A stretch of 64,000 nucleotides of DNA from Octopus vulgaris (GCA_951406725.2 OX597824.1:39866001-39930000), one strand, 5' to 3'; counted from the stretch's first letter, positions 34,275 through 58,386 are shown. Notes: generated from the letters alone by a model not told the origin. Numbers and translations are program-made.

Positions 34275-34369
34275 TGCCCCAGGTGAGGATCGAACTCACG
34301 ACCTTCAGATATCTCAACATAAGCTGCTTGATTATGAGACTGACGCGCTGCCTACTGCGCTACCGAGGC
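34275..34369 (-). tRNA. tRNA-Met-CAT: Elongator tRNA-Met(CAT) with 22-nt intron ATCAAGCAGCTTATGTTGAGAT
   Basis: Exons GCCTCGGTAGCGCAGTAGGCAGCGCGTCAGTCTCATA | ATCTGAAGGTCGTGAGTTCGATCCTCACCTGGGGCA form a 73-nt cloverleaf with G1-C72, T31:T39 and TTC in the T loop (elongator, not initiator). Confidence 0.95.
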
Positions 34370-34760
34370 AACGGAAAACCATTAGTTACATTTCTCTATA
34401 TATGTACGATGACACTCAAACTAATTACCTTCTCATTTAATTTATATAGTGTTCGGACCGCAGCCTTGAGGGAGCACCAACTTTTAAGCTTGATACTTAT
34501 TTTGTCGGTTCTTGTGCCAAACAACTACGTTACAAAAGACTTAGACAAATCAGCGCCGGTCATCAAGCCTGTGGTAGCACAAACATAATCACACACACAC
34601 ATACACAGAGCCAAAGAATACTTTGTAACCGACCTTCTCTAAGAAGTCTACAGGCAAATGACAATTTCTACCGATCGGAGAATTTCTATTAATTATCTCC
34701 ACCTCTATAAAACGAACTCCCTATGGCATAAGAAAATAAAGTTATTCTAAATAAAAAATA

Positions 34761-34855
34761 TGCCCCAGGTGAGGATCGAACTCACGACCTTCAGATTCCT
34801 CTAAAGACTTTACTTGATTATGAGACTGACGCGCTGCCTACTGCGCTACCGAGGC
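34761..34855 (-). tRNA. tRNA-Met-CAT: Elongator tRNA-Met(CAT) with 22-nt intron ATCAAGTAAAGTCTTTAGAGGA
   Basis: Identical exons; T-run downstream. Confidence 0.95.
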
Positions 34856-35392
34856 ACTTGGTAGCAAGTTTTTGAATTTGTCTATCTATGACTTTCATAC
34901 TACTTTTAATGTTTAACTTTTGTTTTTCTTTTATAATATTACTAGCGAGGAAATTACAATGTTGTTATCATAATCCACATTCTTTTAATATCTCCTTTGC
35001 ATGTCTTTTAATTACTTTTAATTACTTACCCAGTTTTATCTACCCTATTACAAATAAAACACTAAGTATAGTAGTGTCATTTCAAGGGAGATAAAATTTA
35101 TTCCTATATTCAGCATTATATAATTTTACTCTCAAACTCATAACCTATAATACTTTTATTGCGCGATTTCTTATTTTGTCTATCAATTAATTATATATAA
35201 ACATCTTTAATACAAGAAATTACCACAACGTTTTCTGTATGCATAGTTCCAGCCAGACCACAGCAATAATAAAAATATTATAATTGTATAAGTTAAATGA
35301 AGGACGGTACTTAACGAAAATCGAGTTGCGTACCTTTAATTCTCTTTAACTGTGCGTGCGTGCGTGCGTGTGTGTGTGTGTGTTTGTGTGTG

Positions 35393-35680
35393 TGGAGGCC
35401 CATTGCCTAATGGTTAGAGAAGCGGACTCGCGGTCGAGGGTTCGCATCTCATATCCGGCGATGTGTGTGCTTATTAGCGAAACACCTAAGCACCACGCGA
35501 CTCCGGCAGAAGGTAATGGCGAGCTTCTGCTGACTCTTTCGCCACAACATTCTCTCACTCTTTCCTCCTGCATCTTGCAGCTCACCTGCGACGGACCGAC
35601 GTCCCGTCCAAGTGGGGAACCTATAACCCAAGGAAAACCGGCCTTTATGAGCCAAGCAAGTCTCGAGAAGGAACAAACAA
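35393..35680 (+). mobile_element. tRNA-derived SINE related to the family C head
   Basis: GTGGAGGCCCATTGCCTAATGGTTAGAGAAGCGGACTCGCGGTCG matches the head of 4606-5000. Confidence 0.7.
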
Positions 35681-35801
35681 TATATACGACGACATTCTAA
35701 CTAGTTACCTTCTTATTTCATCTATATAGTCTCCACCTCTATTTATAAAACGAACTCTCAATGGCATAAGAAAATAAAGTTGATCAAAATAAAATAATAT
35801 G

Positions 35802-35895
35802 TGCCCCAGGTGAGGATCGAACTCACGACCTTCAGATTCCTCTGTATAATTAATTGATTATGAGACTGACGCGCTGCCTACTGCGCTACCGAGGC
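35802..35895 (-). tRNA. tRNA-Met-CAT: Elongator tRNA-Met(CAT) with 21-nt intron ATCAATTAATTATACAGAGGA
   Basis: Identical exons. Confidence 0.95.
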
Positions 35896-36362
35896 ACTCG
35901 ATAACAAGCATTTAAATTTGTCTATCTATGACTTTCGTATTACTTTCTTTTGTCATTTAATTTCTCTATTGAAATTTACTCTGCTGTCATTTAACTCTTA
36001 ATGTCTACCTTTTTTTCTTTCTTTTATAATTTTACTAGCGAGGAAATTACAATGTTATTATCATAATCCACATTATTTTAATATCTCTTTTGCATGTCTT
36101 TTAATTGCTTTTAATTACCTACCCTATTACAGATAAAACACTAAATATATTCGTGTTATTTCAAGGGAAATGCACTTTCTCTCTGCATTCCCCATAAGTA
36201 TATTCAGAATTATATAATTTTACTCTGATACTCATAACCCATAACACTTTTATTACGTGATTTCAAGAAGGCTTCAGGTAATTACAAATTTCTCCCAGTC
36301 CTTTATGCATATGGTCTATATTACAAGAAAATAAAGTTATCAAAAAAAATTCTAAAATGACA

Positions 36363-36457
36363 TGCCCCAGGTGAGGATCGAACTCACGACCTTCAGATTC
36401 CTCAACCTATTTTGTTTGATTATGAGACTGACGCGCTGCCTACTGCGCTACCGAGGC
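36363..36457 (-). tRNA. tRNA-Met-CAT: Elongator tRNA-Met(CAT) with 22-nt intron ATCAAACAAAATAGGTTGAGGA
   Basis: Identical exons. Confidence 0.95.
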
Positions 36458-37092
36458 AATCGGTAATCTGCTTTTAAATATGTCTGCATATGACTGTCAG
36501 GCTACTTTGATTTGTCATTTAATTTCTCTATTGAAATTTACCCTTCTGTAAATTAACTGTCATTTAACTTTTAATGTCTACCATTTTTTCTTTTATATTA
36601 CTTGCAAGGAAATTACCGTCATTATCATAACACACATTATTTCAATATTTCCTTGCACGTCTTTTAATTGCTTTCAATTACCTATTTCTATAGCTATTCA
36701 GTTGTTATCTACCCTTATTACAAGTAAACTGCTAAATATATTTGCGGCATTTCAGTGCAAGGGAGATAAACTTTCTTCACTATAAGCGTATTCTGAGGTT
36801 TAACAGTTTACTGATACTCTAAATGATTTTATATGATTTTTTTTATTTCGTGTTTCAGTTACTTGTGTATTAACATATATAATACAAGAAATTACTACAG
36901 CAATAACTGTATAAGTTAAATCTCAGGTTGTATTTAATGACAGAAATCGAATCGCATCTCCATAATTCTTCTTTAAGAAAAAATGGTAGACATTAAAAGT
37001 TAAATGACAGAAGGGTAAATTTCGATAGAGAAAGTAAAAACAAAGTAGCCTGAAAGTCATATGCAGACATATTTAAAAGCAGGTTACCGATT

Positions 37093-37187
37093 GCCTCGGT
37101 AGCGCAGTAGGCAGCGCGTCAGTCTCATAATCAAACAAAATAGGTTGAGGAATCTGAAGGTCGTGAGTTCGATCCTCACCTGGGGCA
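37093..37187 (+). tRNA. tRNA-Met-CAT: Elongator tRNA-Met(CAT) with 22-nt intron ATCAAACAAAATAGGTTGAGGA
   Basis: Identical exons; inverted twin of 36363-36457. Confidence 0.95.
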
Positions 37188-37661
37188 TGTCATTTTAGAA
37201 TTTTTTTTTTAATAACTTTATTTTCTTATAATATAGACCATATGCATAAAGGACTGGGAGAAATTGTCAATTACCTGAAGCCTTCTTAGAGAAAGAAATC
37301 ACGTAATAAAAGTATTATGAGTTATGAGTATCAGAGTAAAATTATATAATTCTAAATATACTTATGGGGAATGCAGAGAGAAAGTGCATTTCCCTTGAAA
37401 TAACACGAATATATTTAGTGTTTTATTTGTAATAGGGTAGGTAATTAAAAGCAATTAAAAGACATGCAAAAGAGATATTAAAATAATGTGGATTATGATA
37501 ATAACATTGTAATTTCCTCGCTAGTAATATTATAAAAGAAAAAAAAAGGTAGACATTAAAAGTTAAATGAAAGCAGAGTAAATTTCAATAGAGAAATTAA
37601 ATGACAAAAGAAAGTAGTACGAAAGTCATAGATAGACAAATTTAAATACCTGTTATCGAGT

Positions 37662-37755
37662 GCCTCGGTAGCGCAGTAGGCAGCGCGTCAGTCTCATAAT
37701 CAAGTAATTATACAGAGGAATCTGAAGGTCGTGAGTTCGATCCTCACCTGGGGCA
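37662..37755 (+). tRNA. tRNA-Met-CAT: Elongator tRNA-Met(CAT) with 21-nt intron ATCAAGTAATTATACAGAGGA
   Basis: Identical exons; inverted twin of 35802-35895. Confidence 0.95.
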
Positions 37756-38170
37756 CATCATTTTATTTTGAATAACTTTATTTTCTTATGACATAGAGAG
37801 TTCGTTTTATAAATAGAGGTGGAGATTATGGAATGGAAGCACTCCGTCGATTACGACGACGATGGTTCCGGTTGATCCGAATCAACGGAACAGCCTGCCC
37901 GTGAAATTAACGTGTAAGTGGCTGAGCACTCCACAGACACGTGTACCCTTAATGTAGTTCTCGGGGATATTCAGCGTGACACAGAGAGTGACAAGGCCGG
38001 CCCCTTGAAATACAGGTACAACAGAAACACACACACACACATAAAGTTAAGGAGAATTAAGGGTACGCAACTCGATTTCTGTTAAGTACCGTCCTCCATT
38101 TAACTTATACAATTATAATATTTTTTATTATTGCTGTGGTCTGGCTGGAACTATGCATAAATATATATAT

Positions 38171-38335
38171 AATTAAGGGTTTAGCAACAAGTTGCTTCAC
38201 CACATACCGAAAATTTAGAAATAGCAGCCAAAAGACCGTTATTTCTTTTGCTAGCGAAAAGAAATAACGGTCTTTTGGCTGTTATTTCTAAATTTTCGGT
38301 ATGTGGTGAAGCAACTTGTTGCTAAGCCCTTAATT
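38171..38335. repeat. Near-perfect palindrome, ~80-bp arms
   Basis: AATTAAGGG..AGCAACAAGTTGCTTCACC...GGTGAAGCAACTTGTTGCT..CCCTTAATT. Confidence 0.9.
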
Positions 38336-38577
38336 ATTGTTATAATTATATATAAAACTTCTTGTATAAGTTTTTACCGAATATGGTTCTTTTCCATACC
38401 GAAAGCTGCTTTGTAAAATTCATAAATTATAAATTAATAATTTTTTACCCTAACAGTCTCCTATACGAACTCCTTAGGGAGCTGACTATTTCTTCTTATA
38501 ATTCATATAAATAGCTGGGAGATTTCTGGTAAATATCACTCCTCCCGTGCAAAACTTTGTGTGATGTCAGAAAATGA

Positions 38578-38672
38578 ATATACAGGTGAGGATCGAACTG
38601 ACGATTTTCAGGTTCTTCACCATAAGCTGTTTGATTATGAGACTGACGCGCTGCCTACTGCATTACCGAGGT
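38578..38672 (-). pseudogene. Decayed intron-containing tRNA-Met copy
   Basis: Anticodon and 5' exon largely intact; acceptor 3' strand and T stem mutated; intron resembles that of 34275. Confidence 0.8.
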
Positions 38673-39084
38673 AACCGGTACGCTTCTGCTAAATTTCTCT
38701 GTATAAGTACGATGACATTCTAACTAATTACCTTCTCATTTAATTTATATAGTGTTCGGACTGTAGCCATACTGGAGCAACCTCTTGAAGAGTTTAGCCG
38801 AACAAATTGATCCTACTACTTAACTTTTAAGCTTGGTACCTATTTTGTTGGTTCTTTTGTCAAAGACGACTTAAACAAATCAGCGCCGCTCATCAAGCCT
38901 GTGGGAACACAAACACAATCACAACCATAGAATATTTTGTAATCGTCCTTCTCTAAGAAGTGTACAGGTAATTGACAATTCCTGCCGTGGAATTTCTGTT
39001 AAATATCTCCACCTCTATTTATAAAATGAACTCTCTATGGTATAAGAAAATAAGTTTTATTCAAAATAAATATCTAAAATGTTG

Positions 39085-39179
39085 TGCCCCAGGTGAGGAT
39101 CGAACTCACGACCTTCAGATTCCTCAGCATATCTTGTTTGATTATGAGACTGACGCGCTGCCTACTGCGCTACCGAGGC
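39085..39179 (-). tRNA. tRNA-Met-CAT: Elongator tRNA-Met(CAT) with 22-nt intron ATCAAACAAGATATGCTGAGGA
   Basis: Identical exons. Confidence 0.95.
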
Positions 39180-39539
39180 ACGTAATTAACCGCACTTAAA
39201 TTTGTCTATACAAGCACTCTTACTTTCTAACTGCTTACCTAGTTATCTAACATATATTGTTTAATTTACCTTTCTGTCATCTAGTTTACAACATATATAG
39301 CATTATATATATATAACGTTACATGTAAGAAAATTATTACGTAATTATTACGATATATTTCATCACAATACGCACTTTCTATATCTATATTTTCTTTGAA
39401 TTAGTAATTGCCATAGCTATTCTATTATCAACTTTATTAGACGTTAATTACGAAAGCTATAAGTGGCATTAGAGTAAAGGGGAGATAACCTTTCTTCTTG
39501 TATTCACTCTGAACATTTTTGCATTTGGTTTGCAAGGCT

Positions 39540-39770
39540 CTTACGGTGAGCTGGCAGAAACGTTCGCACACCGGGCGAAATGCTGAGCGGTATTTCGTCT
39601 GCCGCTACGTTCTGAGTTCAAATTCCGCCGAGGTCGACTTTGCCTTTCATCCTTTCGGGGTCAATAAATTAAGTACCGGTTACGCACTGGGGGTCAATCG
39701 ACTTAATCTGTCTGTCTGTCCTTGTTTGTCTCCTCTGTGTTTAGCCCCTTGTGGGTAGTAAAGAAATAGG
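39540..39770 (+). mobile_element. SINE family B
   Basis: Matches the family B consensus including the tail. Confidence 0.8.
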
Positions 39771-41015
39771 TTTGCATGGCTCTTGATTTGAGTTCGTATT
39801 TCGAAACAAATCTTGCGTCTTGGGACCTTTCTTTCTATATTGACTTTGACCATATTGGTTTCAGATTTTAGCACGTGGTCAGCAAGTTCGGGGTAGTGGG
39901 TAAGTCGATTACATCGACCCCAGTGTTCAGCTGGTACTTATTTTAACGACCGCGAAAGGATGTAAGGCAAAGTTGACCACGGTGGCATTTGAACTCAAAA
40001 CGTAAAAACAAACGAAATGCCGCAAAGCACGTTAAAGTATATATATATATGTATATATATATATATACGTATAAAAAATATATATATAAATACAAAATGG
40101 GACAAGAACGCAAAACACTCAAAGAGACGACACAAGAAACGGACTCTAATCTTCAGTCAAGAACCGGATCATCCTCGCAATTTTGGCTGATTAATCTTGA
40201 GATCGCTCCGATCCGGCCAGCCCCGAGGAAAAACTAAGCTACGAGCATTAGATTTATTGGGAAAAGGATCGAATGTATACGAAACAAGGACAGAAAAACG
40301 GACGATGCCACACGAATATAAATACAAAAAACAATAATAGTAATAACAGGACAAAAACAGTGGGTGTCTTACGACTTTAGACAGTTCAACTTAGCTTAGC
40401 TGGCGTATTTGGAAAATAATGCCTTACGGCAGACGAAGAAATCGATGTTGTCGTGGCGGTTCTCAGAAGCCGAAAGGCTAGTTGACCGGCGGTCATGTGA
40501 GAGGAGAAGAGAGAGAAAAAAAGGGGCAAAGGAATCAAAGAGAGAGAGAAAAAGAGGGACAAAGGCACCAAATAGGGAGAGAAGAGAGAGGAAGAAGGAA
40601 TTAAAATCGGGAGAAGAAAGAGAGCGTGCCAAGGATTGGCTTGACGACAGAATCAGTGAGGTGCAAAGTGAGAAAGACAGAGAAATGTGAGAGAGTGGGG
40701 GAAGAGGAGACCAAAGAATCAGAGGCGAGAAAAGAGAAAGACATAGACTAGTGAAGTATAGAGAAAGTGTGTGTAGAAGTCGTACAGTAGTGGGGTGCTT
40801 ACATACATAAGAGAACAAGGTGTACACACACACACCCAGTAAGTACAGCGAGTAGTGGTTGGGCCCTACAGCTGTACAAAAGAGATCTATTGATTTCATA
40901 TAGAGAGAGACAAATGCAAATTTAGATTTAGATATACATACATACATATGTATTTGTGTCCTTGCGTATGTGTAAGACATCAGAAGTTATTTACCTAAGA
41001 AGTTTAAAAAACTTG

Positions 41016-41075
41016 TGCCCCAAGTGACCCTCGAAATACTTTGATTATCTATGAGGCTGACGCGCTGCGCTACAG
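41016..41075 (-). pseudogene. Heavily deleted tRNA-Met copy
   Basis: TGCCCCAAGTGA...TATGAGGCTGACGCGCTGCGCTAC with homologous flank. Confidence 0.6.
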
Positions 41076-42006
41076 CGAAACCTATGAAATTGTCATAAAT
41101 TTTACTATAAAACCACTATCATTCTTCGACTAGTTTACTTGTCATTTAATTTATACTGGGGAATTTACCTTGTGCCCATCTAATTTAAAATGCCAACTTC
41201 TCTCAAATATAACATTACCAGTAGAAAAAACAATTACGTAATTATCTCGGTATAATTTGTCGCAATACCTCCTTAGTATATCATTTAATTACATTTAATT
41301 AGCTATTTCATTATACCTTATCTATTGCACAAAAGTCAACAAGATTTAGTGTGTCATTATAGTGCGAAGGAGATAACCTTTTATTCTCCTTTCACTTTGA
41401 TCAAACTGTGAAGCAATTTATTCTGATCCTGATAAAGCTTTTATTTTATGGCTAATTATTTCGTCTAAAAGTTAATTATATATTTTCGTCTTTACTACAA
41501 CTACTTACCACAAGGTATTGTGTGTGCTGTGTGCACTTTCTGTTCTTCCCCCACATTATAATTGTAACAACTATAAAACCGCCAATCATCGAATATAACG
41601 TGGTAGCTAGAGAAACAGTTATCTCGCTTACCAAGTCTTCGCTACTGCTTTAGGTTCACCTGTAGGCACCAGTCACCAACAGACAAGCACACCCTCTCGA
41701 CCTTTGCACCTAAACCCAGCAGACCATCAAAGTCGTGTTTCATGTTTGCTGAAGTTACAGAGAACTGCATCAATTCTGACTGCTGACGAAACAAGGTTTA
41801 TGGAGTCACAGACCCCGTCTCGACATGTCATGCTTTGATCCAGTGGCGCATTCAGAATGCTAACAGCTACTGTGAAAAAGGGCTTCACCAGCACGTGGCT
41901 GGTACTCGTTTTCAGCTGAGTAGATTTGATCAATGAAAAGTAAAGTGCCTTGCCCAAGGATACAATCCGACAGACAGACAGACAGACAGGTAGACAGACA
42001 GACAGG

Positions 42007-42042
<36 letters not shown>

Positions 42043-42049
42043 TAGATAA

Positions 42050-43920
42050 CTTTCTTTTATTAGCCACACAGGGCTGAATACAGAGGGGAAAAATACAAAT
42101 GTAGAGCTTTTCTTTTCGAGGGTGGAAAAGAAAAAGGAAAATAAATGTAAGATTTCGATCAAAAGGGATCGAGAGGAAAAAAGAAAAGAAAAAAATAGGA
42201 ATCGTGTATCACAGAAAAACTTTAAAAAAAACAAACATTGATAAAACAAGATTGGGTTCATCCGTGGGAAGAAAAGCCTACAGAAAAGACCACGGGAACC
42301 TCAGTCAGGGAGAAAATAACCACATGAGAGCAAAATGCTCTCTCTTTTTTACGATTTACAGGGTCATGCTCAAAATGGCTTCGTCACTCGCACGCACCAT
42401 CTTTGCAACATTCACCCATCTTTTTTTTTAATCTTTCGCGAGACAAAACTTTCCTCTCCATTCTCACCTTCCTTTTCAAGTGGTACTTGAAAAAGTTGAT
42501 GAGCGATTGGCCAGAGAGGTAAGTGTTTGTCTCTAATCCTTTCGCTCGGGTCCACCACACACATTCTTTCACCATGGCCACCAGTACGATGAAAACTGCC
42601 TTGCCTTCCCGGTTGAGGGAAGGGGGCGGAGCAATTTTCACGATAGACTCGGCCGATAAGCGGACTCGTCCCACACGTGACAGCAGCCGTTCGGCATAAG
42701 CCCACAGGTCTGAAATAGTTGGACATTGCACGAGTGCGTGCAGAACGATTTCGTCGCTCTGACCGCATCTCGGGCAAGTCGGTCCAGTGTGTCTGGAACC
42801 GTGTCTGTAGAGCTTATCCTGAACAGGTAAAGCTTCTCGATAGCACTGCCAGGCCATGGATCTTTGGTGATTGTTCATAGGTCCCGGCCCGAAAGTTGTC
42901 CTGAACAGGCGGGTCAGGTGTTCCTCGTCGACGCCCAGACTCTGCCCGAGATCGTCGTCGCACCTCCCCTTCACTAATCCTCTATAGAATGCCTTTATTG
43001 TGATGGAGTCGCACAAGTTTGATCCCGGACGGCAGAGTTGCTTGAGAGTAACGCGACACTCGCGGTGCCATTCGCCTAGCCTCGGTCTCTGCTTGATCCA
43101 TGACTGTAGTTCGGCCAATGAGACGAGCTGCGGGAAAGCGCGCCGCACAAAAAGCGACCACACCTGTTCACCGTTGTCTATGAAGCGCCGGAGATGTCGC
43201 AGTCTCAGCGCATTTCTGCGCATCATCAACCACGGCTTGCCCAGCCCTCTATTTAGCGGGTGTTGACAGCAAATGGATCGCCTAACCATCGGAATGTTTC
43301 CCTTCCACAGGAAGCGGAAGAGTATACGTTCCAGTTTGGTGATGGTAGGGTCGGGACAAGGCACGACGGTCAGACGATACTCGACGACGGATGCGATGTA
43401 CGCGTTTGCCACCTCCGCCCGACCTTTTAGGGATAGCTTTCTCTCAGCCTATTTCTGGGTGAGAGTAGCTACCCTAGTCGTTATTTCGCCCCAGTTCTTC
43501 TCCATTTGGAGGTCCGGACCGAACCAGCCCCCGAGCAATTTAACCGGTCCGTTGGTCCAGCGTCCCACGATGGAGACGCTGTTGGACGGCATGGGCCTGC
43601 TTCTCCAGGTGCCGAGCCGCAAGCCCACTGACTTTTCCCGGTTAATTTTTGCTCCTGTTACCGCTTCGTATTCTTTTAGTGTCTCGCCGACCAGCTCGAT
43701 GTGCTGGTAGCTCGACACTATGACGGTGACGTCGTCCGCGTATGCAGACACGCTCCTCCTGCATCCCAGCTCTCGTGGGATGCCCCTCAGCGTCGCCAGT
43801 TTCCGCAGTAGTGGCTCAAGAGTCAATACATACAGAAGCGATGAGAGGAGGCATCCCTGACGAACCGAACGCATGATGTTAAAAGGTCTGGATAGATGAC
43901 CATTTACGCGAACTACCAAG
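42050..43920 (-). mobile_element. L1/Tx1-clade LINE, 5'-truncated (RT C-terminal half, zinc-binding domain, 3' UTR)
   Basis: VRQGCLLSSLLYVL..EPL, SAYADDVTV, GAKINREKS, RFLWKG and CPRCGQSDEIVLHALVQC; ORFs 43449-44045 and 42384-43412 split by a stop; 3' end AATAAAAGAAA. Confidence 0.9.
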
Positions 43921-44391
43921 CGGAATGGTTCGCGGTTTCTCTTTGTATAGCATGTCTTTAAGAACACCCCACAAGAAGAAATCCGGAGGGCGGTCTTTCT
44001 GCTAGTTTTAATAAAAAGTGTTTGTTGCTCAAAGCGTCTGAGCAATTAAAGCTGCTTCTATAATAAATCAACATCGTTCATTAGATGTTCGATATACTGC
44101 AGGAGCATAGTGAGTATTATAATAAAAAATAGCTTTACTATTAAAATATTTCACCATTTTCTCGAGTTATTTCCATACAAAAAACATTTATTTCTCATTT
44201 GATGTTCTATATCCTGCATATATTACCATTTTGCCAACACACGACCATATACATCTTCGGATACAAGTGTATAATGTCTGGGTTTGTGTGTGTGTGTTTT
44301 TATGTTGCAGTGTATATTTGTTGGTCTCCATCTCCCATTCTCTCTCACCCTCTCTCTTTGCCTATCCCCTCTCTCTCTCTATCTCTCTCTA

Positions 44392-44444
<53 letters not shown>

Positions 44445-44544
44445 GCATGTCTTACTCTCTATCATAGACACCTCAGATACGTATTCTATTTTACTTTTCC
44501 TATCTATCGATCTCTCTATCAATCAATCTATCTATCTATCTATA

Positions 44545-44619
<75 letters not shown>

Positions 44620-44678
44620 ATACCTACCTATCTATCTGTCTGTCTGTCTGTTTGTCTGTCTGCCTGTCTATATATCAG

Positions 44679-44760
<82 letters not shown>

Positions 44761-44859
44761 CATCTATCTATCTATTTATCTATCTATCTATCTGTTTGTA
44801 TGTCTGTCTGTCTATCTATCTGTCTGTTTATTTGTCTAACTACTTCTTTAACTACATAC

Positions 44860-44890
<31 letters not shown>

Positions 44891-45019
44891 TGTATGTATG
44901 TATGTATGTATGTATGTATGTATGTATGTATGTATGTATGTGGGCTGGAGGCGCGTGAATGGGGGAGCACCTCTAATAGGTGGAACATGTGGTGATTTTC
45001 GATGTAGTTCGTCCGCTTT

Positions 45020-46260: not shown

Positions 46261-46265
46261 ATACC

Positions 46266-46849: not shown

Positions 46850-46924
<75 letters not shown>

Positions 46925-47150: not shown

Positions 47151-47265
47151 TATATATTTGTGTATGTATATGTATATGTGTGTATGTGTATATATACAGT
47201 AAATTCGTTGAGTATATAATTAAAAGTAATAGTCTTTAATTTAATACATGGCTGTTGTTACAGGT

Positions 47266-47359
47266 GCCTCGGTAGCGCAGTAGGCAGCGCGTCAGTCTCA
47301 TAATCAAGTAATTATACAGAGGAATCTGAAGGTCGTGAGTTCGATCCTCACCTGGGGCA
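47266..47359 (+). tRNA. tRNA-Met-CAT: Elongator tRNA-Met(CAT) with 21-nt intron ATCAAGTAATTATACAGAGGA
   Basis: Identical exons; TTTTT terminator just downstream. Confidence 0.95.
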
Positions 47360-47959: not shown

Positions 47960-48036
<77 letters not shown>

Positions 48037-48385
48037 CAGGGTGTCCCAAAAGTTTCGCTCGATTCTTATTTGGAAACCTATCGTAGGTTTATCAAGTAAT
48101 TTTATTGCATAGAACAATGATGAATAATGACTACGAATAAAACAATGGTGCAACAATGATAACTATGAACGAAATGATTCAAACTCTTCGCCATTGTTTT
48201 CGATACAAGAAAGCAAACGCGAAGCAACGCTGCGACAAGCCTTTTGGGACAGTTCTACGTCGACTGTAGCGAATTGCTTGTTAATAAGTCGACGAAGATC
48301 AGGAATGGTTCGCGGTTTCTCTTTGTATATCATGTCTTTAAAAAAAAACCACGAGAAGAAATCCATAGGGATTACATCGGGTGAA
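48037..48385 (-). mobile_element. Tc1/mariner transposase C-terminal remnant with TIR (second fragment at ~43921-43995)
   Basis: PMDFFSWFFFKDMIYKEKPRTIPDL...RLLSCIENNGEEFE; terminus TA-CAGGGTGTCCCAAAAG. Confidence 0.75.
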
Positions 48386-48631
48386 CAAACACGCTCTATA
48401 TATTTGTTCTTCTTATTTTTTTTTTAACTCATGTCCATTCTCCGGAAATGTTTCGTGACACATATGTGACCTCTTCAGTGACACTTTTCATTTTCGTCTG
48501 TGCTCTTGCACCAATTACTCCATTCTCCGTTTCTTTGGAAAAAAAAAATTCCCTCCTGAAATACAACAATATCTGTTTCAACACACGATTCCACATCTAG
48601 AATCTTGCAACACAAATTGATAAACGTATAA

Positions 48632-48705
<74 letters not shown>

Positions 48706-49349
48706 GTATGCGTGTGCATATGTATCTATATATATATATATTCATATATTATATATCTATCTATATATATATATGTGTGTGTGAAGGCACATGGTTTAGT
48801 GGTTTAGTGGTTAAGGTGTTGCACTCACGATTGCGAGATCGTGGGTTCGATTCCCAGACCGGACGTTGCCTTGTGTTCTCATTGAGCAAATCACTTCATT
48901 TCACGTTGCTCTGCGATCATTTCGACATTTCGACATCTGACATGTGGTACCTATACAAGTAATTTCAATCTGATGGAGGGAGTAAGGCAAAGCGATTCTG
49001 TCAGATACAAGGCCAGCCATTTTGTTAGGTTATCGCCCTTGCACAATGAACTCGCGCGATGGGAAAAACAGAATAACAACAAAATCTATTTAGCGTGTAT
49101 TTAAAGGAGTCAATATATGGGGAAGTAATTTGGGGCATAGGTAATTTAACGCTAATTAGAGACATACAAGAAAGTATTAAGATTAAATATATCACAATGA
49201 TTATGTAATTAATTCTTGATTTGTAATGTTTAATTCTCCGTGAGTAATCCTCATATATGCAAAATAATCGAGCTTATAGTAAATTCGTTGAGTATATAAT
49301 TAAAAGTAATAGTCTTTAAGTAGCCAAATAGATGGATGCTGTTACAGGT

Positions 49350-49444
49350 GCCTCGGTAGCGCAGTAGGCAGCGCGTCAGTCTCATAATCAAGTAAAGTCT
49401 TTAGAGGAATCTGAAGGTCGTGAGTTCGATCCTCACCTGGGGCA
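49350..49444 (+). tRNA. tRNA-Met-CAT: Elongator tRNA-Met(CAT) with 22-nt intron ATCAAGTAAAGTCTTTAGAGGA
   Basis: Identical exons; T-run terminator. Confidence 0.95.
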
Positions 49445-50337
49445 CAAATTTTTATTTTAAATAACTTTATTTTCTTATGCCATAGAGAGTTCGTTTTATA
49501 AATAGAGGTGGAGATATTTAACATAATCTGACTCAGATGGAAACCCATTTTGTAAGAGGATGTGTCATATTAGTTTCAAACTTTGGGGAAGTAGTCAATC
49601 GATTACATCTACTCGGTGCTCATCTGGTACTTATTTTATCGACCTCGAAAGGATGAAAGGCAAAGTCGTTCTTGGCGGAATTTGAACTCAGAACGTGAAA
49701 ACGGACTAAATGCCGTTAAACATTTTGCCTGACGTGCTAACGATTCTCTCAGCCAACCGTCTTATTAGGTTGTATCATACTGAGCAATCTTAAGCTTATG
49801 CGTTCGATCTTCATCTAAGGCATAGTGTTATGTCAACACAAACATTTGGTCACTATAAACAAATCATCAGCCAGCAATATTGAGGAGAAGGATTAGTCTA
49901 TACTTGTTATTTGACGGGTACTTATTATATCGAACCTAAATGGATGAAAGTTGAAATTGAACACGGCGAGAATTGAACTCAGGACGGAAAGGACTGGAAT
50001 AAATACTAGACGGTTATTCTGCCGGGCTAGCTGTCTCCAGTGAGATGGAGGTTAGTCGGTTCCTGCGGGAAGAAAGATCATCTCCCTTGCACAATGAACT
50101 AGAGGGAAGCAAAAATTAATATACTTGCATTGAAATTAGTTAACATATAATCAACTACTTACAAACATTAGTAATTAAAAGTTAGAGTTATTCAGAGAAA
50201 GTATTGAGATAAAATATGACATAATATTTTATCTCAATATGATATGGAGATTTTAAAAATCTTGCAAATATTTATACATTCCTTTATAAAATAGGCTTTC
50301 ATGTGTCAGAAAATATATTAATTCAGTAAAAGTAGCG

Positions 50338-50421
50338 TGCCACAGTTGAGAATCGAACTCACGAACTTCAGATTCCACAACTGATTATGGGCTGACGCGC
50401 TGCCGACTGTGCTACCGAGGA
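50338..50421 (-). pseudogene. Decayed tRNA-Met copy
   Basis: TGCCACAGTTGAGAATCGAACTCACGAACTTCAGAT...GCTACCGAGG. Confidence 0.8.
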
Positions 50422-50708
50422 ACTGACGACAGCATTTTCTAGCTACTTTCTAATTATTAGAAACTGTTACTTTCTGAATATTTGGTTGACCAATCAATTT
50501 ACTACAAGGTCTACCATTTCACATATTTAATGTTGCTAAAGGATAATTAATTACACAATTATGTAATTAATCCTCCTTTAAGAATTATGCAATTATTTCT
50601 CCTTTAGTAATGTTGTATATGTGAAATAATAGCCCTAGTAGTAGACAAAACAATCAGAAAGTAATTTGTTTTCCTTTAACAAGTCTACTAGAAGACATTG
50701 TCGTCAGT

Positions 50709-50803
50709 GCCTCGGTAGCGCAGTAGGCAGCGCGTCAGTCTCATAATCAAACTAAGCACGTTGAGGAATCTGAAGGTCGTGAGTTCGATCCTCACCTGGG
50801 GCA
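50709..50803 (+). tRNA. tRNA-Met-CAT: Elongator tRNA-Met(CAT) with 22-nt intron ATCAAACTAAGCACGTTGAGGA
   Basis: Identical exons; T-run terminator. Confidence 0.95.
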
Positions 50804-51348
50804 CATTACTTTTATTTTTTTAAGTTGAATGATTATATTTTCTGACACGGAAGAAAACCTAATTTATAAAGAAATGTATAAATGTTTGTTAGATTTAAAA
50901 AATCCCAAAATATTGAGGAATTTGAGGCTGATGACTTCCATCTTTGATGAGGGACAAATGTTCTTAATTTTCAATTATTTACTAAGAAACATCACATCAG
51001 CTCTTAAATGTCTAGCAGCACCGTATAGATAGACGGTCAACGAATAAATATACATTCTCCTAGAGGAGACTAGAACTTGAACATAAAACTGATAAAACTT
51101 TCGTTAATTTTAAAGTTATCTCCTTTCTGTCCTTAGTAGGTTGGTACCTGGTACATGATCCGTGTTTTACAACTAGGATCTATCCACCAAGCAGGATTCA
51201 TTTGACTGTTTTGTAGAGCATTTCAACTTGTGGGTCACACTCTATATAGTCGATCACTTAAAAATCTAAAAAGAAAATTACACCTTACTTTATAAAGCTG
51301 ATCTTCAAGTGTGTCAGAAAATGAATTTTTTCAAGAAAAAATAGCTCA

Positions 51349-51443
51349 TGCTCCTGGGGAGAGTCGATCTCACGGCCTTCAAATTCCTCCACAGACTTGG
51401 ATTGATTATGAGACTGACGCGGTGCCTACTGCGCTACCGTGGA
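51349..51443 (-). pseudogene. Decayed full-length intron-containing tRNA-Met copy
   Basis: 95-nt alignment with CAT retained; T arm, B box and acceptor stem mutated. Confidence 0.8.
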
Positions 51444-52220
51444 AAGTGACAGCTGGCGTAGTAGTTCGTTATATACACATGATTACTTTCTAATTGTTAT
51501 GCACTCACCTGATATGCATACATTATCTACTATTTCTTACATATGTCGTTATTACTCAGGTAATTTTTACAGAATGATTGCCATATACTTTAGCAATTTC
51601 CTTCTTTGAATAACCCTAATTAATATTAATTAGCTGTGTTTGTTATTACATTGTGTTAAAAGCTTTACCCGTTAATTAGGTAACATGTTGCTTTATTATA
51701 GTGTAAGGTTTTTGATGTTCTAAACTCAAAGTCAACTTTACCTTTTACCCTTCCGAAATCGAAAAACAATAAAGCACAAGTATTATACAGAGTCAATAAG
51801 ATTAAGTATAAGTCAAAAACTGGGTCTTTATTTTATCGCCTTGAATATTAGCTGTCAACGTGTATCAAGTAATCGATACCAGCTTGTTATAGGCTACAGT
51901 AGGTTGCTACAAAATGGACTAACGTTTCATCAATAATAACAGAGGAACAGCAACTGTTCCATACTGACCGAGTACACCTTCTGACTAGAAAAGGCCCCGC
52001 TGTGACCAGCCCCAGTATATGAACTATCTGGAAATGGTGAAAGTACATGTCCTGACTGCTTCAGTACATCCGATATGCCAGGCTGTGTCTTCGTATATCT
52101 GTTAGAAAATATAAATATATTACGGCTATTCGTCGACTAACTATACACATGATGTTATTGTACTATTCGGAGTTGAGCTGATGTGGGAGTTTTCAGAATA
52201 GTAAAAAAAACTTTCTAGAC

Positions 52221-52468
52221 CACTTTCTCAACACCTTTTTTTACTTATGGACCTCTTTGATTCCTATTTCACTTGGATGGACCCACATAGCCACTTGATG
52301 TGTAAAAAAAATTCTATTACGTTTTTATAATCAAATAAGTTTAGGAGTTGTATATAACAAAAGTATCGCAATATTGTGTGTATTGTAAAAGTATAGCCAA
52401 ATAAATTTCAATCACAAAATCTTACATGGACCCCCAAGGGCCATACGGACCCCGGATGAGAACACCTG
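52221..52468. mobile_element. hAT (Charlie-like) MITE
   Basis: Ends ...GAGAACACCTG; 8-bp TSD-like flanks TTCTAGAC / TTCTAGAG. Confidence 0.7.
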
Positions 52469-53046
52469 TTCTAGAGAGATAAATGATAAATGTATACACA
52501 TTATGCAGAATCAAAAACATTTTCCAGAAGTGTGGGTTGAATTCATAACCCCTTAGATTCCACAATAGAATTTGGAGATTTGTAAATCTAAGAAATATCT
52601 ACACACACCCTTCTATAAAATAGATTATTTTTGTATCAGAAAATAGAAACATTAAAGTAAAACAATATGCCCTTGGTGAGGATCGAACGCATAAGCTTAA
52701 GATTGATCAGTATGATACAACCTAATAAGACGGTTGGCTGAGAGAATCGTTCGCACGTCAGGCAAAATGTTTAACGGAATTTCGTACGTTTTCACGTTCT
52801 GAGGTCAAATTCGGCGAAGAACGACTTTGCCTTTCATCCTTTCGAGGTCGATAAAATAAGTACCAGTTGAGCACTGGGTAGATGTAATCGATTGACTACT
52901 TCCCCAAAATTTGAATCTAATATGACACATCCTCTTACAAAACGGGTTTCCTTCTGTGTCAGATTCTGTTAAATATCTCCACCTCTATTTATAAAACGAG
53001 CTCTTTATGGCATAAGAAAATAAAGTTATTTAAAATAAAAAATATG

Positions 53047-53141
53047 TGCCCCAGGTGAGGATCGAACTCACGACCTTCAGATCCCTCTGATGACTTTACT
53101 TGATTATGAGACTGACGCGCTGCCTACTGCGCTACCGAGGC
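53047..53141 (-). tRNA. tRNA-Met-CAT: Elongator tRNA-Met(CAT) with 22-nt intron ATCAAGTAAAGTCATCAGAGGG
   Basis: Identical exons. Confidence 0.95.
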
Positions 53142-53793
53142 ACCTATAGCAACACCTATATATTTGACTACTTAAATTAAAGACTATTACTTTTAATCAT
53201 ATACTCAACGAATTTACTATAAGCTCGATTATTTCGCATACATGAGGATTACTCACGATGAATTAAACATTACAAATCAAGAACTGATTACATAATCATT
53301 GCAATATGTTTAATCTTAATACTTTCTTGTATGGCTCTAATTAACTTTTAATCACCTATATCCCAAATTACTTTACCATATGTTGACTCCTTTAATTACA
53401 CGCTAAATAGATTTTGTTGTTATTCTGTTTTTTCCATCGCGCGAGTTCATTGTGCAAGGGAGATAACCTATCAAAATGGCTGGCCTTGTATCTGACAGAA
53501 TCGCCTTGCCTTATTTCTTCTGTCTATTTACGTCCTGAGTCCAAATCCAGCTAAGGTCAACTTTGTTTTTATCTTTCAGAGCTAGGATCGATCGAATAAA
53601 GTACCAGTCAAGTACTGGTGTCGATGGTATCCACTTAATTTCTCCAGTATTTTGTTAACGAGATAACCTACATGAATATGCTACGATCTAATCACGGAAT
53701 AAAAACATAAACAAATATACAAAAAAGAAAATGAACATTTTACATAACACGATGCCGCTTTATTTTATGCCTACTTATGTCCTTTATTTAAAA

Positions 53794-54208
53794 CTAGTGG
53801 TATTGCGTGGCGTTGCTCGGGTTTGTTTTCTTTTCGACCCTTTAGAATTGGAATTTTTGAAAAGTAAAACTTTAGCATTATGTAGCTTGTTATTCTCTTT
53901 AAGTGAATATTTTTCTGGTTGAAATACACCGAAAAATCGCGATACAGCAGTCAAAAAATTGTAAAAAAAATAGGGATTTTCATAGAAAAAAAGCACCTTT
54001 TTGATGTAAATACTTTTTGATGTAAATACTTTTTGGTGTTAATTTGGTGTTAATATGGTCCGATTTGAATTTTTTTTCTACGGAATGAAGAGCAAGCCTT
54101 CTTCTATCATTTTGGTCAACTTGCGCCGCAGGGTCTCGGAGGAGATAGTGTTAGTTGAAGCCTATTAAACCTGCCACACACAGACAACTTCAGCTTTATA
54201 TAGATAGA
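53794..54208 (-). mobile_element. Non-autonomous Helitron (related termini, different interior)
   Basis: CTAG end with GGCGTTGCTCGGG hairpin; TC end after ACAACTTCAGCTTTATATAGA. Confidence 0.65.
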
Positions 54209-54741
54209 TTGCATGATTTAAACGTTATCATGACATTAAATCCTGGCCGACATGAGCTTGAAGCTGATCAAGGCCAAAGTTTATTCCGGTTTCTATGACC
54301 TGCAAGCGACGAAATGTGCTATGTACTACTCTCCTGAATTGGACGCTAATCCGTCGGAGGGTTAACTTCCCTAGCAACTGCTGGCGCTTATTTTCAGTAG
54401 AGTGGGTTGGAGCAGTGGGAAATCAAATGTTTTACACAACGTACCGTGTTGTCTAGGAAATGAAACCAAGACCTTAAGATTGCAAGTCCTATATACTAAC
54501 CACTAAACCGTATTCTGCTCCTCAAAGGAACTGATTTAATATCACAAAGTAGTTTGTCCGCACTATAGCAACTGTAACTTTGGCATTTCACTGCTTTTAC
54601 AACAATAATAGTAAGTTACATTGATGACTGTACATGACTTCTTCTTTCTCCAAAATAGCTGCCAGGTTTGTTATGTCTGCACTTAGTATAGGTTTGGCGG
54701 GAATATTCAACCAATATTCTTTGTGTTAATATGTATCTTAT

Positions 54742-55115
54742 AGCAGAATCGTTAGCGCGCCAGACGAAAAGCTTAACGGCATTTCGTCTGCCGTTACTTT
54801 CTGAGTTCAAATTCCGCCGAGGTCGACTTTGCCTTTCATCCTTTTTGGGTCGATAAATTAAGCACCAGTTACGCACTGGGAACGATATAATCGACTTAAT
54901 CCATGTGTCTGTCCTTGTTTGTCCTCTCTGTGTTTAACCCCTTATGGGTAGTAAAGAAATAGGTATTTCGTCCATCTTCACGTTCTGAGTTCAAATTCCA
55001 CCGAGGTCAGCATTGCCTTTCATTCTTTCGAGGTCGGTAAAATAAGTACCAGTTGAGTACTGAGGTTGATATAATCGACTTACCCTTTACCCGAAATTGC
55101 TGGCCTTGTGTCAAA
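54742..55115 (+). mobile_element. SINE family B, two tandem units
   Basis: Family B domain and tail repeated. Confidence 0.8.
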
Positions 55116-55149
55116 ATTTGAGAACAATATGTTTATATTTATTGTTAAC

Positions 55150-55189
<40 letters not shown>

Positions 55190-55379
55190 ATGTATGTATG
55201 TATGTATGTATGTATGTATGTATGTTTATGTATGTATGTATGTATGTACGTATGCATGTCATTATTCAGTTTTATTTCAAGACTTCTTGCCAAAGGAGAA
55301 AGAGCCGGTTTCTAACCTTGATCCAAGGCTCCTTCGTTGGAATTTCAACATCAACAACAGGGTATTTTTGCATATATCA

Positions 55380-56080
55380 CCTCTCTGCAACATCACAGAG
55401 AAGCTGTCTCCTTGTAATATGTCTTTGCGATAAAGTATTCTATCGGTGATAATACAGTCACTTTTGTGTTTAATTTCAAGATGGTGGCCCACGATGAAGT
55501 CAGGTCAGCTATGGCCTTGACTATTCTCACTGGAACTTTAGCAAGTTGAAGAGCTTCTAGCATCCATGAGTGGGGAACAGAGCTAAAGGCTTTCTTGCAA
55601 TCTAGCCACATTGAAACTAGGTTCCTCCTATGCTCTCGCACCTCTGACATCACAGTTTTGTTGATTAGCAATTGCTCGGCACATCCCCAGACTCCCTTCT
55701 TCCCAGCTGCTTGTTCTGCTGTGATAATGTTATTGGTTTCACAATGGTCCTGGAGGAAGAGGTTTAAACATGCTATATATATATCTTATACATTAAGTTC
55801 TGGCATGCAATTGGCCGGTGGTTTTTTGCCAGGTGGTTGGTTCTGCATTTGAGCATCAATTTTGTCTCTGCCAGAGCTAACCAGTGTGGTATGCTATTGT
55901 GTTCCCAATGAAAGCTTACTGGGACGGATTGACAAGATATGTTAGCTTCTTGTACCAATATCCAACAATCAAGTCTCTTCCAGGTGCTTTTCCATCCTGG
56001 AGTTTCTGGATCACAGATGTAAGAATTTCACCATCAATGTTGTATGTCTTGGATGTAACGCAAGCGCAATAACTTTTCCA
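55380..56080 (-). mobile_element. R4/Dong-like non-LTR retrotransposon RT remnant
   Basis: KAPGRDLIVGYWYKKL, NHRPIACQNLMYKI, WLDCKKAFSSVPHSW and ILQGDSFS motifs across frameshifts. Confidence 0.85.
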
Positions 56081-56170
56081 GATTTCTATGTATGTATGTG
56101 TGTATGTATGTATGTATGTATGTATGTATGTATGTATGTATGTATGTATGTATGTATGTGTGTATGTATG

Positions 56171-56204
<34 letters not shown>

Positions 56205-56685
56205 TGTACGAACAATACTATTTCAGCGTGTCTTCTTTTCTATTTTAGATGTCCATAAATACATCCTCTCAACAAATGCACTGTTGACCTAGCTGAGAAT
56301 CAACCATTAGATATTTAGAGGTAGTGAGGGCTACATCGATTTAATCATTAGATAAAACTAAATTTTATTTTTGGGCAAATTCTTCCGCCTTGTTATAGCA
56401 ACGCCGCAAACGATATACTTTGAATTTGTAAAAAGTAAGGAGTAAAAACCCACTTCGGTCAGGATGGGCCATGAGATTGCACCTACAAACTTCCTCTCCG
56501 AGGCACAAATCCAGGCAAGATCGATCAGCAGTCACCCATGCATACCAGTCTCCTATTACCACGCTACCGATGTTGACCAAGGCTGTGAATCGAGCAGATA
56601 TTAATACTTCCCTTTATAAAATGGGTTTCTTACAGTGTCAGAAAATAAACATATTCAGCTAAAAAATTATGTAACATAAAGCACT

Positions 56686-56771
56686 TTGCCTTAAGGGCAA
56701 ATTTACGACCTTCCGATATCTCCACTTGATTGATAACGACAGTGACTTGCTGCCTACTACGCTACCGAGGT
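56686..56771 (-). pseudogene. Decayed tRNA-Met copy
   Basis: TACGACCTTCCGAT...GCTGCCTACTACGCTACCGAGG with the shared downstream flank. Confidence 0.7.
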
Positions 56772-56966
56772 ACTGGGAACCGACTACTTTTTCCGCCTTA
56801 GCACAGCATCGCTTCAGTGTGTGTATAATATTATTAATAATTAAAAATAGGATATTTTAATCAAACTGCACAGTATCTTACAAATATTTACACCTCCCTT
56901 TATAACGTGGATACTTTATTGTGTCAAAAGGTAAAATTTACAACTAAAAAAAAAGCGAAAATAATG

Positions 56967-57052
56967 AACTTCGGGTGAGGATCGAACTCACCACGTTCAT
57001 GTTTCTCCGTATACAATTACTAAAACGCGTTGCCTACTGCGCTATCGAAAAG
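56967..57052 (-). pseudogene. Decayed tRNA-Met copy
   Basis: GGTGAGGATCGAACTCAC...ACGCGTTGCCTACTGCGCTA. Confidence 0.7.
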
Positions 57053-58298
57053 CTGGCCGTTTCAGTTTTTATTTTACTTGGAAAATGAAAGCGCTATTTT
57101 CTGATTATATTATCAGCTAATTTACTTTTAGCTCTATTATTTCACTTATTTAACATTACTAATGAAGAATGAAACATTGCTAAAGGGGTATTAATTAGAT
57201 AATTATTACGTTTTATTTAATTCCAATACTTCCTTTGCATATATCTAATTAACTTTTCATTGCCTATACTTTTAAGTACCTACGGCTTCAGGTCACTACC
57301 GTTTTTATCAGGCCACAAAATCCTATGTGACGCACAATTATCTTTAAATGGTTGCGTAATACTTTGTCGTTTTATGTAGAAGGAGGGCTGTGCCCATGAC
57401 CTTTTGACCTCAGATAGAAATAGAGGAGAGGAAGAAACGGAGGGCAGTATCCCTTTTACAGAGATCAGGCCCAGGCTTGTAAACAGACTGGACTCTGCTA
57501 AAGGTATTCAAGGACTAAGTGGTGGTGTTTAATCGGGTGACGGATTAACTCGACTAACTCAGAGGGCCACGGTGGGGTTTGAACTCAGGCGTCCTGTCCT
57601 GTTCTGGCAATCTTGCTAATCCATCGCCTCGAATAGTGGCTTCATTTATTGACCCTCGGAAGCTTGATATTCAAACATTAAACTGGACGGCTGTTGAACT
57701 CGGAACACAAACTGGAATAAATACTGCAAGGTACCTTTGCCTGATGCTATGTAATTGAGGACCGCTTAACTTCGAATTTTAGTTGGTCAAGCAGCAGTAT
57801 AGAAGTCCTTTAGTTCGCTCGTGATGATGATGATGATGATGATGAGAAGGAGGAGGAGGAGGATCATGATCATATTTGTTGTTTAGCTCCAGGTCAGCCC
57901 TGATCAAAGGCCATCATATCTGTGGCTGTAATTTCTATTTGGCACAATTTATCTAAAGACTACATCATCCAATCTATCTTCCCATTTATTAGGAGGATGG
58001 ACGTAATCCGAAAGAGATTTAACTGCTATTTCTTGCAGTTGGAGTGACCACGTAAAGGCACTTTTTCTTGAGCCAAGATTTGTTACTTCCCTTTGTTGTA
58101 GGAGCTAACACCACTTATTAGAATTAGAACTTCGCATCTCATTAAGCAATTATCATTAAAAGAATGAAATGATGTTAATGAGATTTGGTTTGTTTATGCT
58201 AATCAACTGAAGATATAAATAAAACACATAGAGCAACAGGTATAATCACAACTGAGTTGATCATGTTCTATGCTAAGTTAAAAGAGACGTTTCCAAGT

Positions 58299-58386
58299 GC
58301 CTCGGTAGCGCAGTAGGCAGCGCGTCAGTCTCATAATCACAGGTCGAGCTATCTGAAGGTCGTGAGTTCGATCCTCACCTGGGGCA
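58299..58386 (+). tRNA. tRNA-Met-CAT: Elongator tRNA-Met(CAT) with 15-nt intron ATCACAGGTCGAGCT
   Basis: Identical exons; long T-run Pol III terminator immediately downstream. Confidence 0.95.

Follow-up and report, generated by a model that had tools for sequence, protein, structure and literature searches.

Intron-containing elongator tRNA-Met genes of Octopus vulgaris and a candidate guide RNA for their wobble base

Do any animals retain introns in their elongator tRNA-Met genes, and if so, what might keep them there? The question is raised by a 64,000-nucleotide stretch of Octopus vulgaris DNA (GCA_951406725.2, OX597824.1:39866001-39930000; referred to below as the window), which carries a cluster of interrupted tRNA-Met(CAU) genes. 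In GtRNAdb, introns are essentially absent from metazoan tRNAs other than those for Tyr, Ile, Leu and Arg (PMC12530127, 2025). The available part of a 2026 review (PMC13578239) suggests that the Met intron is ancestral and was lost in animals, and calls the reason for its retention in plants unresolved. A kingdom-specific pattern for Met is mentioned without detail in the available text of PMC12168002, which speculates that modifications drive retention. An animal Met intron goes unmentioned in the available portions of PMC8450103, PMC11408192, PMC10485636 and PMC4536317. Our literature search, whose scope did not extend to GtRNAdb or NCBI annotation, found no report of an animal Met tRNA intron, and Figs S3-S4 of PMC6601510, which concern invertebrate guide homologues, may bear on novelty. 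Automatic genome annotations probably already hold bare calls of such genes, which lowers the surprise. Our analysis points to an old animal intron in the elongator Met genes of the octopus, and we consider it reasonably probable that the AUC start of this intron lets a guide RNA of the SNORD97 type methylate C34 on the unspliced precursor.

The genes and their dependence on splicing

A search of the window with the Rfam model RF00005 detected exactly 12 tRNA genes, all within positions 34275-58386 and each scoring 51.9-52.6 bits. All twelve possess the same exons (37 and 36 nucleotides (nt), 73 nt together), and an intron of 15, 21 or 22 nt is inserted after position 37 (37/38) in every gene. 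The initial annotation of this DNA, which had described twelve Met(CAT) genes with identical 73-nt exons interrupted after position 37, was thus borne out by RF00005 and by exon comparison. The joined exons fold as a cloverleaf with CAT at 34-36, the pair G1-C72, and T54, C60 and A73. The anticodon stem consists of T-A, C-G, A-T and G-C, followed by a T31-T39 mismatch in 12 of 12 genes. Initiator tRNAs are marked by A1-U72, A54, A60 and three G-C pairs closing the anticodon stem. As these marks are absent, the window genes are, judging from their exons, elongator rather than initiator Met tRNA genes; CAT, the G1-C72 pair, T54, C60, A73 and T31-T39 all agree with the elongator identity that had been assigned. 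A TTTT run, fitting an RNA polymerase III (Pol III) terminator, lies 2-8 nt past the gene end in all twelve. ARAGORN mislabelled or missed the window genes when run without an intron search; with an intron search it returned 12 genes, and the 9 entries printed in full were tRNA-Met.

Both strands are used, with seven genes on the minus and five on the plus, and two inverted duplications (35726-36592/36975-37829 with 93% identity, and 48983-49829/52661-53513 with 92% identity) account for several of the gene pairs. The cluster is a loose homocluster with inverted duplications and not a tandem array. Of the term array used initially, the clustering of 12 genes holds and a tandem arrangement does not; four decayed copies, together with several half copies among the genes, had been overlooked. 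Imperfect palindromes are found at 50233-50917 and 38157-38349, the former pairing the intact gene at 50709 with the decayed inverted copy at 50338.

We then consider the genome as a whole (2.8 billion bases in 227 contigs). A gapped exon pattern matched 39 intron-bearing Met genes on 11 contigs, and a reversed-pattern control matched none. The intron follows position 37 in 39 of 39 matches. An intronless Met junction was found at 0 exact places genome-wide and, with one mismatch, at 2. One of the two (L012) was rejected as an intronless gene, there being no tRNA around it. The other (L011:1476-1548; G000:C13:3138757-3138829) is the only intronless Met copy found, and is decayed, with 9 changes and a broken acceptor stem; it is either a retrocopy of a spliced tRNA or the product of a precise deletion between two ATC repeats. 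A DNA search with this copy as query yielded 60 candidates, and the 40 of them that were scored included no further ungapped gene of full length. Two further copies lie outside the exact pattern (L206, G000:C21 near 10400238, and L199, C17 near 78907891), one with an exon-2 deletion and one with a changed base 41.

The tRNA intron endonuclease domain PF01974 scored above cut-off at 3 places on 2 contigs, and the same genome holds 45 intron-bearing Tyr-GTA genes. Because the exons are identical in 12 of 12 genes while the intron middles diverge, it is nearly certain that the intron-bearing Met genes are functional and spliced. With no intact intronless copy found, the supply of elongator Met tRNA likely needs tRNA splicing, as had been proposed at the outset; all elongator Met tRNA would then be made in this way, with the proviso that a divergent or unassembled isodecoder may escape such searches. 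As for genome organization, 41 of the 45 Tyr-GTA matches fall within one 163-kb cluster (G000:C4:51909597-52072575). Single-isotype tRNA clusters are the rule in the octopus genome, and further Met clusters are present on C17 and C8.

The intron in other animal lineages

Metagenome contigs were scanned for animal-type Met exons separated by a gap of 5-35 nt, a requirement that makes the scan uninformative on intronless lineages. The matches comprised at least 132 loci, corresponding to at least 127 distinct gene contexts and at least 97 distinct introns of 13-25 nt. Among the 127 contexts listed, the intron starts with ATC in 117, ATG in 8, and ATT and AAC in 1 each, and among the matches listed G occupies position -3 in 95 of 97 distinct introns. 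By our own sorting the contexts fall into 7 exon types, five of which are unplaced. For lineage placing, 80 of the 132 loci were screened and 148 of 181 flanking open reading frames (at least 85 amino acids) were scanned for Pfam domains, giving 3 matches in 2 loci. The flanking exon of locus L111 has 95% identity to a protein that falls into the same 90% cluster as one named for the stony coral Orbicella faveolata. The flanking gene of locus L121 is 91% identical to a protein named Euroglyphus maynei, and the next cluster is that of Dermatophagoides (dust mites). An Atlas search for placing the flanks returned only 'MTCH2-like, animals'.

The intron position, the AUC start and the G at -3 are common to octopus, coral-type and mite-type DNA. 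Comparison of these sequences makes it very probable that the intron is shared by descent with cnidarians and chelicerates. Because the three share these features, the intron would most simply be older than the cnidarian-bilaterian split, and it is likely an old animal feature that was lost in model species. Two points count against this dating. Only 2 of the 80 screened loci could be placed, one for each group, and in the available part of PMC2655684 (Table 1) two Met genes of Trichoplax are listed with no intron mark, so that losses or separate gains are needed.

Several other features of the metagenome loci were observed. In coral-type loci, L074, L094, L099 and L124 among them, the Met intron is 13-14 nt long and repeats exon 2 over its first 6-7 bases; the precursor could therefore adopt an anticodon arm like that of the mature tRNA, the variable region being enlarged, and the loci often adjoin Lys-TTT genes. 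Genes for tRNA-Gly(GCC) with 14-18-nt inserts in the anticodon loop (L072:597-687, L080:523-611, L081:466-550 and L136:1408-1498) lie in dense mixed tRNA clusters of an unplaced lineage that has AUG-start Met introns; if that lineage is animal, the insert would be another non-textbook intron. A Lys-CTT-like gene with an intron of about 28 nt (L092:1114-1216, minus strand) adjoins an intron-bearing Met gene, and the octopus genome gave one Lys-CTT match, which is intronless.

The fixed intron start and a candidate guide for C34

In the octopus genome the intron has a free middle between two fixed ends. At the 3' end, GAG is present at -5 to -3 in 39 of 39 introns and can pair with C32-U33-C34, leaving a 3-nt bulge; computed pairing of C32-C34 with the intron in the window genes is 0.80-0.97 in seven, 0.32-0.45 in four and 0.03 in one. 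At the 5' end all 39 introns start with ATC (AUC in the transcript), a copy of exon-2 positions 38-40. The other interrupted tRNAs of this genome served as controls. None of the 45 Tyr introns starts with ATC though Tyr exon 2 does, and 14 different starts were counted by eye. For Ile-TAT a first motif gave 0 matches and a second motif 1, and the intron of this single gene does not copy exon 2. As neither the Tyr introns nor the Ile intron copy exon 2, the AUC start appears, on this comparison, to belong to Met specifically and not to reflect a general demand of the splicing enzyme. Among distinct introns the A at +1 is invariant (30 of 30 in the octopus genome, 97 of 97 in metagenomes) and the C at +3 is not (91%). 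U is found at +4 in 1 of 30 own introns and in 0 of 71 non-coral-type introns, counts in which related copies are not independent; the U share of intron interiors is 19-25%.

We searched the genome for a guide RNA with a 15-base pattern taken from the human SCARNA97 probe printed in PMC6601510. The pattern gave 17 matches, and its control 2. Fourteen of the 17 were dropped as chance matches, having no C box within 260 nt, whereas in the remaining 3 a C box lies 124 nt upstream and the ends form a 6-base-pair (bp) terminal stem. These three candidate guides are repeated in tandem on contig C21 at a spacing of about 980 nt. Each is 152 nt long and has an extended internal stem with many GU repeats, and all three are sense-oriented within one intron. 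The joint of this host intron (227 to 3757 of L195, GT..AG) was present in 4 of 4 sequencing runs examined (of 24 listed), and the upstream exon matches SOSS complex subunit B1 (E 9e-18). Coverage of the guide locus comes from contigs, with no run on record as RNA and 14 guessed to be RNA. One contig starts at the guide 5' end (X4, place 799); a break between three similar copies would do likewise. Over 14 of the 17 pattern loci, Rfam at E up to 1 gave only simple-repeat matches. About 11 kb upstream of the guides, L062:5660-7069 is a 469-codon intronless frame for an NSUN6-like tRNA methyltransferase (96% identical to an Octopus bimaculoides protein and 74% to one of Argonauta hians), probably a chance neighbour.

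The antisense element of the octopus guide agrees with the human SCARNA97 probe (PMC6601510), and C34 lies opposite the guide base five positions upstream of box D. Pairing between guide and precursor extends over 10 bp (positions 31-37 followed by AUC) with 12 of 12 precursors, at -13.5 to -16.6 kcal/mol. When all 64 possible intron starts are compared, none pairs better than ATC, which shares first place at -13.5 kcal/mol; the median is -8.8 kcal/mol. By analogy, we claim that the guide would work like SNORD97; orthology is not claimed, because there is no Rfam match and the host gene differs.

Taking these results together, we can propose a sequence of events. The gene would be transcribed by Pol III, for which the internal boxes and the oligo-T terminator are seen in the sequence. 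In the precursor the intron GAG would pair with C32-U33-C34, giving the 3-nt bulge shape that is presumably cut by the tRNA splicing endonuclease. Since AUC repeats exon-2 positions 38-40, the precursor would read from 31 to 40 as the mature tRNA does. The box C/D RNA encoded in three copies in the SOSS-B intron could then form its computed 10-bp duplex with the precursor, placing the fifth base before box D at C34, which would be methylated as human SNORD97/SCARNA97 work implies. The guide would first have to open the anticodon-intron helix, and methylation would therefore precede, or compete with, splicing. Thereafter the intron would be excised and the halves ligated. In the available text of PMC7229835, reconstituted fungal and archaeal box C/D ribonucleoproteins work best at 9-10 bp and are inhibited by longer duplexes. 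The rarity of U at +4, which would make 11 bp, and the existence of an AUG-start lineage, which would give 9 bp, both fit this preference. On balance we favour the view that AUC is kept for guide action on the precursor, a reading drawn from the pairing and conservation patterns above.

A number of observations weigh against guide action on the precursor. Pairing between the guide and the spliced tRNA is longer (12 bp, 31-42) and stronger (-18.5 to -21.9 kcal/mol), and the two extra guide bases involved are kept in 3 of 3 copies. Since the guide pairs better with spliced tRNA and the human guides act on an intronless tRNA, the precursor is not required. C32-C34 are tied to the intron in most computed precursor folds. 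Ten of the 127 metagenome contexts listed have no ATC start, and U is present at +4 in 21 of 26 coral-type introns, which would take the duplex beyond 10 bp if a coral guide is alike. The guide is known from the octopus genome alone, with none seen for the other lineages; an Rfam search of the guide in L056, at E up to 1, gave no family, and its host is neither EIF4G2 nor LARP4. Intron-dependent modifications such as Tyr psi35, Ile psi34/36 and Leu m5C34 are defined by their loss once the intron is taken away; a dependence of C34 methylation on the intron as strict as this is doubtful, because the guide also fits the spliced tRNA.

The strongest alternative is that the guide methylates the spliced tRNA only, and that AUC is retained because a protein enzyme reads the precursor loop. 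Such an enzyme could be a pseudouridine synthase with position 31 or 39 as its target, or the machinery for N6-threonylcarbamoyladenosine (t6A) at position 37, for which U36-A37-A38 is required. The longer and retained guide pairing with spliced tRNA would be expected in that case, as would the invariance of A at +1 combined with variation at +3, and the known intron-dependent modifications are protein-made according to the available parts of PMC11408192 and PMC12168002. However, t6A accounts for +1 only and leaves U+2 and C+3 aside, the Ile-TAT tRNA also has U36-A37-A38 and yet its one intron found starts with G, and +1 to +3 are exactly the positions that complete the 10-bp guide duplex. We regard this alternative as a serious one that is nonetheless unlikely.

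It is improbable that AUC has instead a Met-specific role in folding or splicing, in which a weak U31-U39 would sensitize the 5' splice site or the intron ends would pair with each other and switch folds. The T31-T39 mismatch of all twelve window genes agrees with the former. For the latter, base -4 is a possible partner of U+2 in all 30 own introns and 96 of 97 metagenome introns, and the lowest-energy fold joins the intron's own ends in 2 of 12 window genes. Base -4 also pairs with U33, so this count does not separate the models, and the pairing is not extended, with +4/-6 pairs possible in only 6 of 30 own and 11 of 97 metagenome introns. Pairing of the intron ends as the reason for AUC was rejected, as there is no covariation past the fixed bases. 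The 14 different starts of the Tyr introns in the same genome also argue against a folding or splicing role.

We find it very unlikely that the intron arose by tandem duplication from exon-2 position 38 onward, once or several times, with AUC an unselected relic of gene conversion. A direct repeat at both splice junctions is the expected trace of duplication, and in the coral-type group introns match exon 2 at +4 to +7 (81, 62, 85 and 50% in 26 distinct introns), with interiors closer to exon 2 than 300 of 300 shuffles. In the octopus genome, interiors are no nearer to exon 2 than shuffles (278 of 300 reach the observed score) and no single intron falls below p 0.07. Of the 7 groups, the coral-type one alone gave a clear positive and a single further group a weak one (3 of 300), and a duplication origin was rejected for the octopus genome. 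The match to exon 2 stops sharply past +3 in five other exon types, and a neutral relic should not persist while the adjoining bases turn over. Finally, a gain specific to cephalopods or molluscs, one side of the initially proposed lineage-specific gain or retention, would suit the absence of the intron from human, fly and worm (available parts of PMC12530127 and PMC4536317) and from the Trichoplax list, and is scarcely credible given that in coral-type and mite-type contigs the intron occupies the same position, starts with AUC and carries G at -3; retention is the side that stands.

Coordinates of the Met genes, the decayed copies and the three guide copies are collected in Table 1. The remainder of the window consists of simple repeats and retroelement remnants. 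Broken frames that by eye resemble the reverse transcriptase region of a long interspersed nuclear element and a retroelement endonuclease (42384-44045 and 4027-4545, both minus strand) interrupt or flank the tRNA cluster.

Table 1. Met tRNA genes and decayed copies in the window, and candidate guide copies elsewhere in the genome.
Feature	Position	Strand	Intron	Remark
Elongator tRNA-Met(CAU) gene	34275-34369	minus	22 nt, 34311-34332	
Elongator tRNA-Met(CAU) gene	34761-34855	minus	22 nt, 34797-34818	
Elongator tRNA-Met(CAU) gene	35802-35895	minus	21 nt, 35838-35858	inverted-duplication partner 37662-37755
Elongator tRNA-Met(CAU) gene	36363-36457	minus	22 nt, 36399-36420	inverted-duplication partner 37093-37187
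Elongator tRNA-Met(CAU) gene	37093-37187	plus	22 nt, 37130-37151	
Elongator tRNA-Met(CAU) gene	37662-37755	plus	21 nt, 37699-37719	inverted-duplication partner 35802-35895
Elongator tRNA-Met(CAU) gene	39085-39179	minus	22 nt, 39121-39142	
Elongator tRNA-Met(CAU) gene	47266-47359	plus	21 nt, 47303-47323	
Elongator tRNA-Met(CAU) gene	49350-49444	plus	22 nt, 49387-49408	inverted-duplication partner 53047-53141
Elongator tRNA-Met(CAU) gene	50709-50803	plus	22 nt, 50746-50767	
Elongator tRNA-Met(CAU) gene	53047-53141	minus	22 nt, 53083-53104	inverted-duplication partner 49350-49444
Elongator tRNA-Met(CAU) gene	58299-58386	plus	15 nt, 58336-58350	shortest intron among 39
Decayed Met copy	38578-38672	minus	22 nt	3 + 9 exon changes; no GAG at -5 to -3
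Decayed Met copy	51349-51443	minus	22 nt	3 + 8 exon changes
Decayed Met copy	50338-50421	minus	partly deleted	8 + 4 exon changes
Heavily decayed Met copy	32202-32276	minus		10 + 5 exon changes; outside 34275-58386
Candidate guide copy	L060:8400-8551			
Candidate guide copy	L060:9377-9528			
Candidate guide copy	L061:355-506			

Implications and relation to known systems

In the octopus genes an intron of a familiar kind interrupts a tRNA that was believed to lack one in animals, and the fixed, exon-mimicking start together with a matching guide offers a concrete and testable purpose. The presence of the intron in octopus, coral-type and mite-type DNA moves the loss of the Met intron to within the animals. 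The question of why a tRNA intron is kept thereby becomes a direct test involving three invariant bases, one guide and one modification. In such animals the reading of each internal AUG likely requires TSEN together with a tRNA ligase. This is relevant to how far the disease picture drawn from human TSEN can be generalized, and gene finders run without an intron search will mislabel these Met genes. A broader picture can be put forward tentatively, as a possibility that we would not yet call probable. The Met intron would join the four recognized ancestral tRNA introns of animals as a fifth, retained by cnidarians, chelicerates and molluscs but obscured by a database bias toward vertebrates, insects and nematodes. 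At its 5' end, selection would have maintained three bases that mimic exon 2 and thereby fit the precursor to the 9-10 bp at which a SNORD97-type guide works best. This would be the first example among eukaryotes of a pre-tRNA that is methylated by way of a guide RNA while it still contains its intron, a counterpart of the archaeal sR-tMet, and the short direct repeat would provide a precise deletion route explaining repeated loss in model animals.

Among known tRNA introns, those of plant and algal elongator Met tRNAs reside in the same tRNA and at the same 37/38 site; in land plants introns are found only in elongator Met and Tyr, as stated in the available part of PMC13578239. The octopus differs in being an animal, the group in which that portion of the review suggests that the intron was lost. 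With the metazoan introns of Tyr-GUA, Ile-UAU, Leu-CAA and Arg-UCU, processed by TSEN/RTCB, the octopus Met intron shares the 37/38 position, the anticodon-intron pair between base 32 and intron position -3, and the 3-nt bulge, and in both cases all genes of the isoacceptor carry the intron. It adds a fifth isoacceptor to this set, and its 5' end is fixed and copies exon 2, unlike that of Tyr in its own genome. The available text of PMC4090602 describes intron states as all-or-none for each isodecoder, and the same was seen in the octopus Met genes.

In human, C34 of elongator Met tRNA is ribose-methylated via SNORD97 and SCARNA97, for which insects, plants and Ciona offer candidates (available part of PMC6601510), and the target is an intronless tRNA (available parts of PMC6601510 and PMC13578239). 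The octopus guide resembles SNORD97 and SCARNA97 (SNORD133) in being a box C/D RNA in the intron of an RNA polymerase II gene, with a near-identical antisense element and the fifth base at C34. It differs in that it targets intron-bearing genes and in that three tandem copies reside in SOSS-B/NABP and not in EIF4G2 or LARP4. Its GU-repeat stem is like the Cajal-body signal of box C/D small Cajal body RNAs, in place of which human SCARNA97 has a pyrimidine tract according to the available part of PMC6601510. In archaea, Haloferax volcanii has sR-tMet, a box C/D RNA that serves as guide for the wobble position in elongator pre-tRNA-Met (available part of PMC4033218). Going by that description, to which the likeness is confined, both the archaeal RNA and the octopus guide are trans-acting box C/D RNAs directed at C34 of elongator Met in an intron-containing precursor, a substrate that in the octopus is the one we propose.

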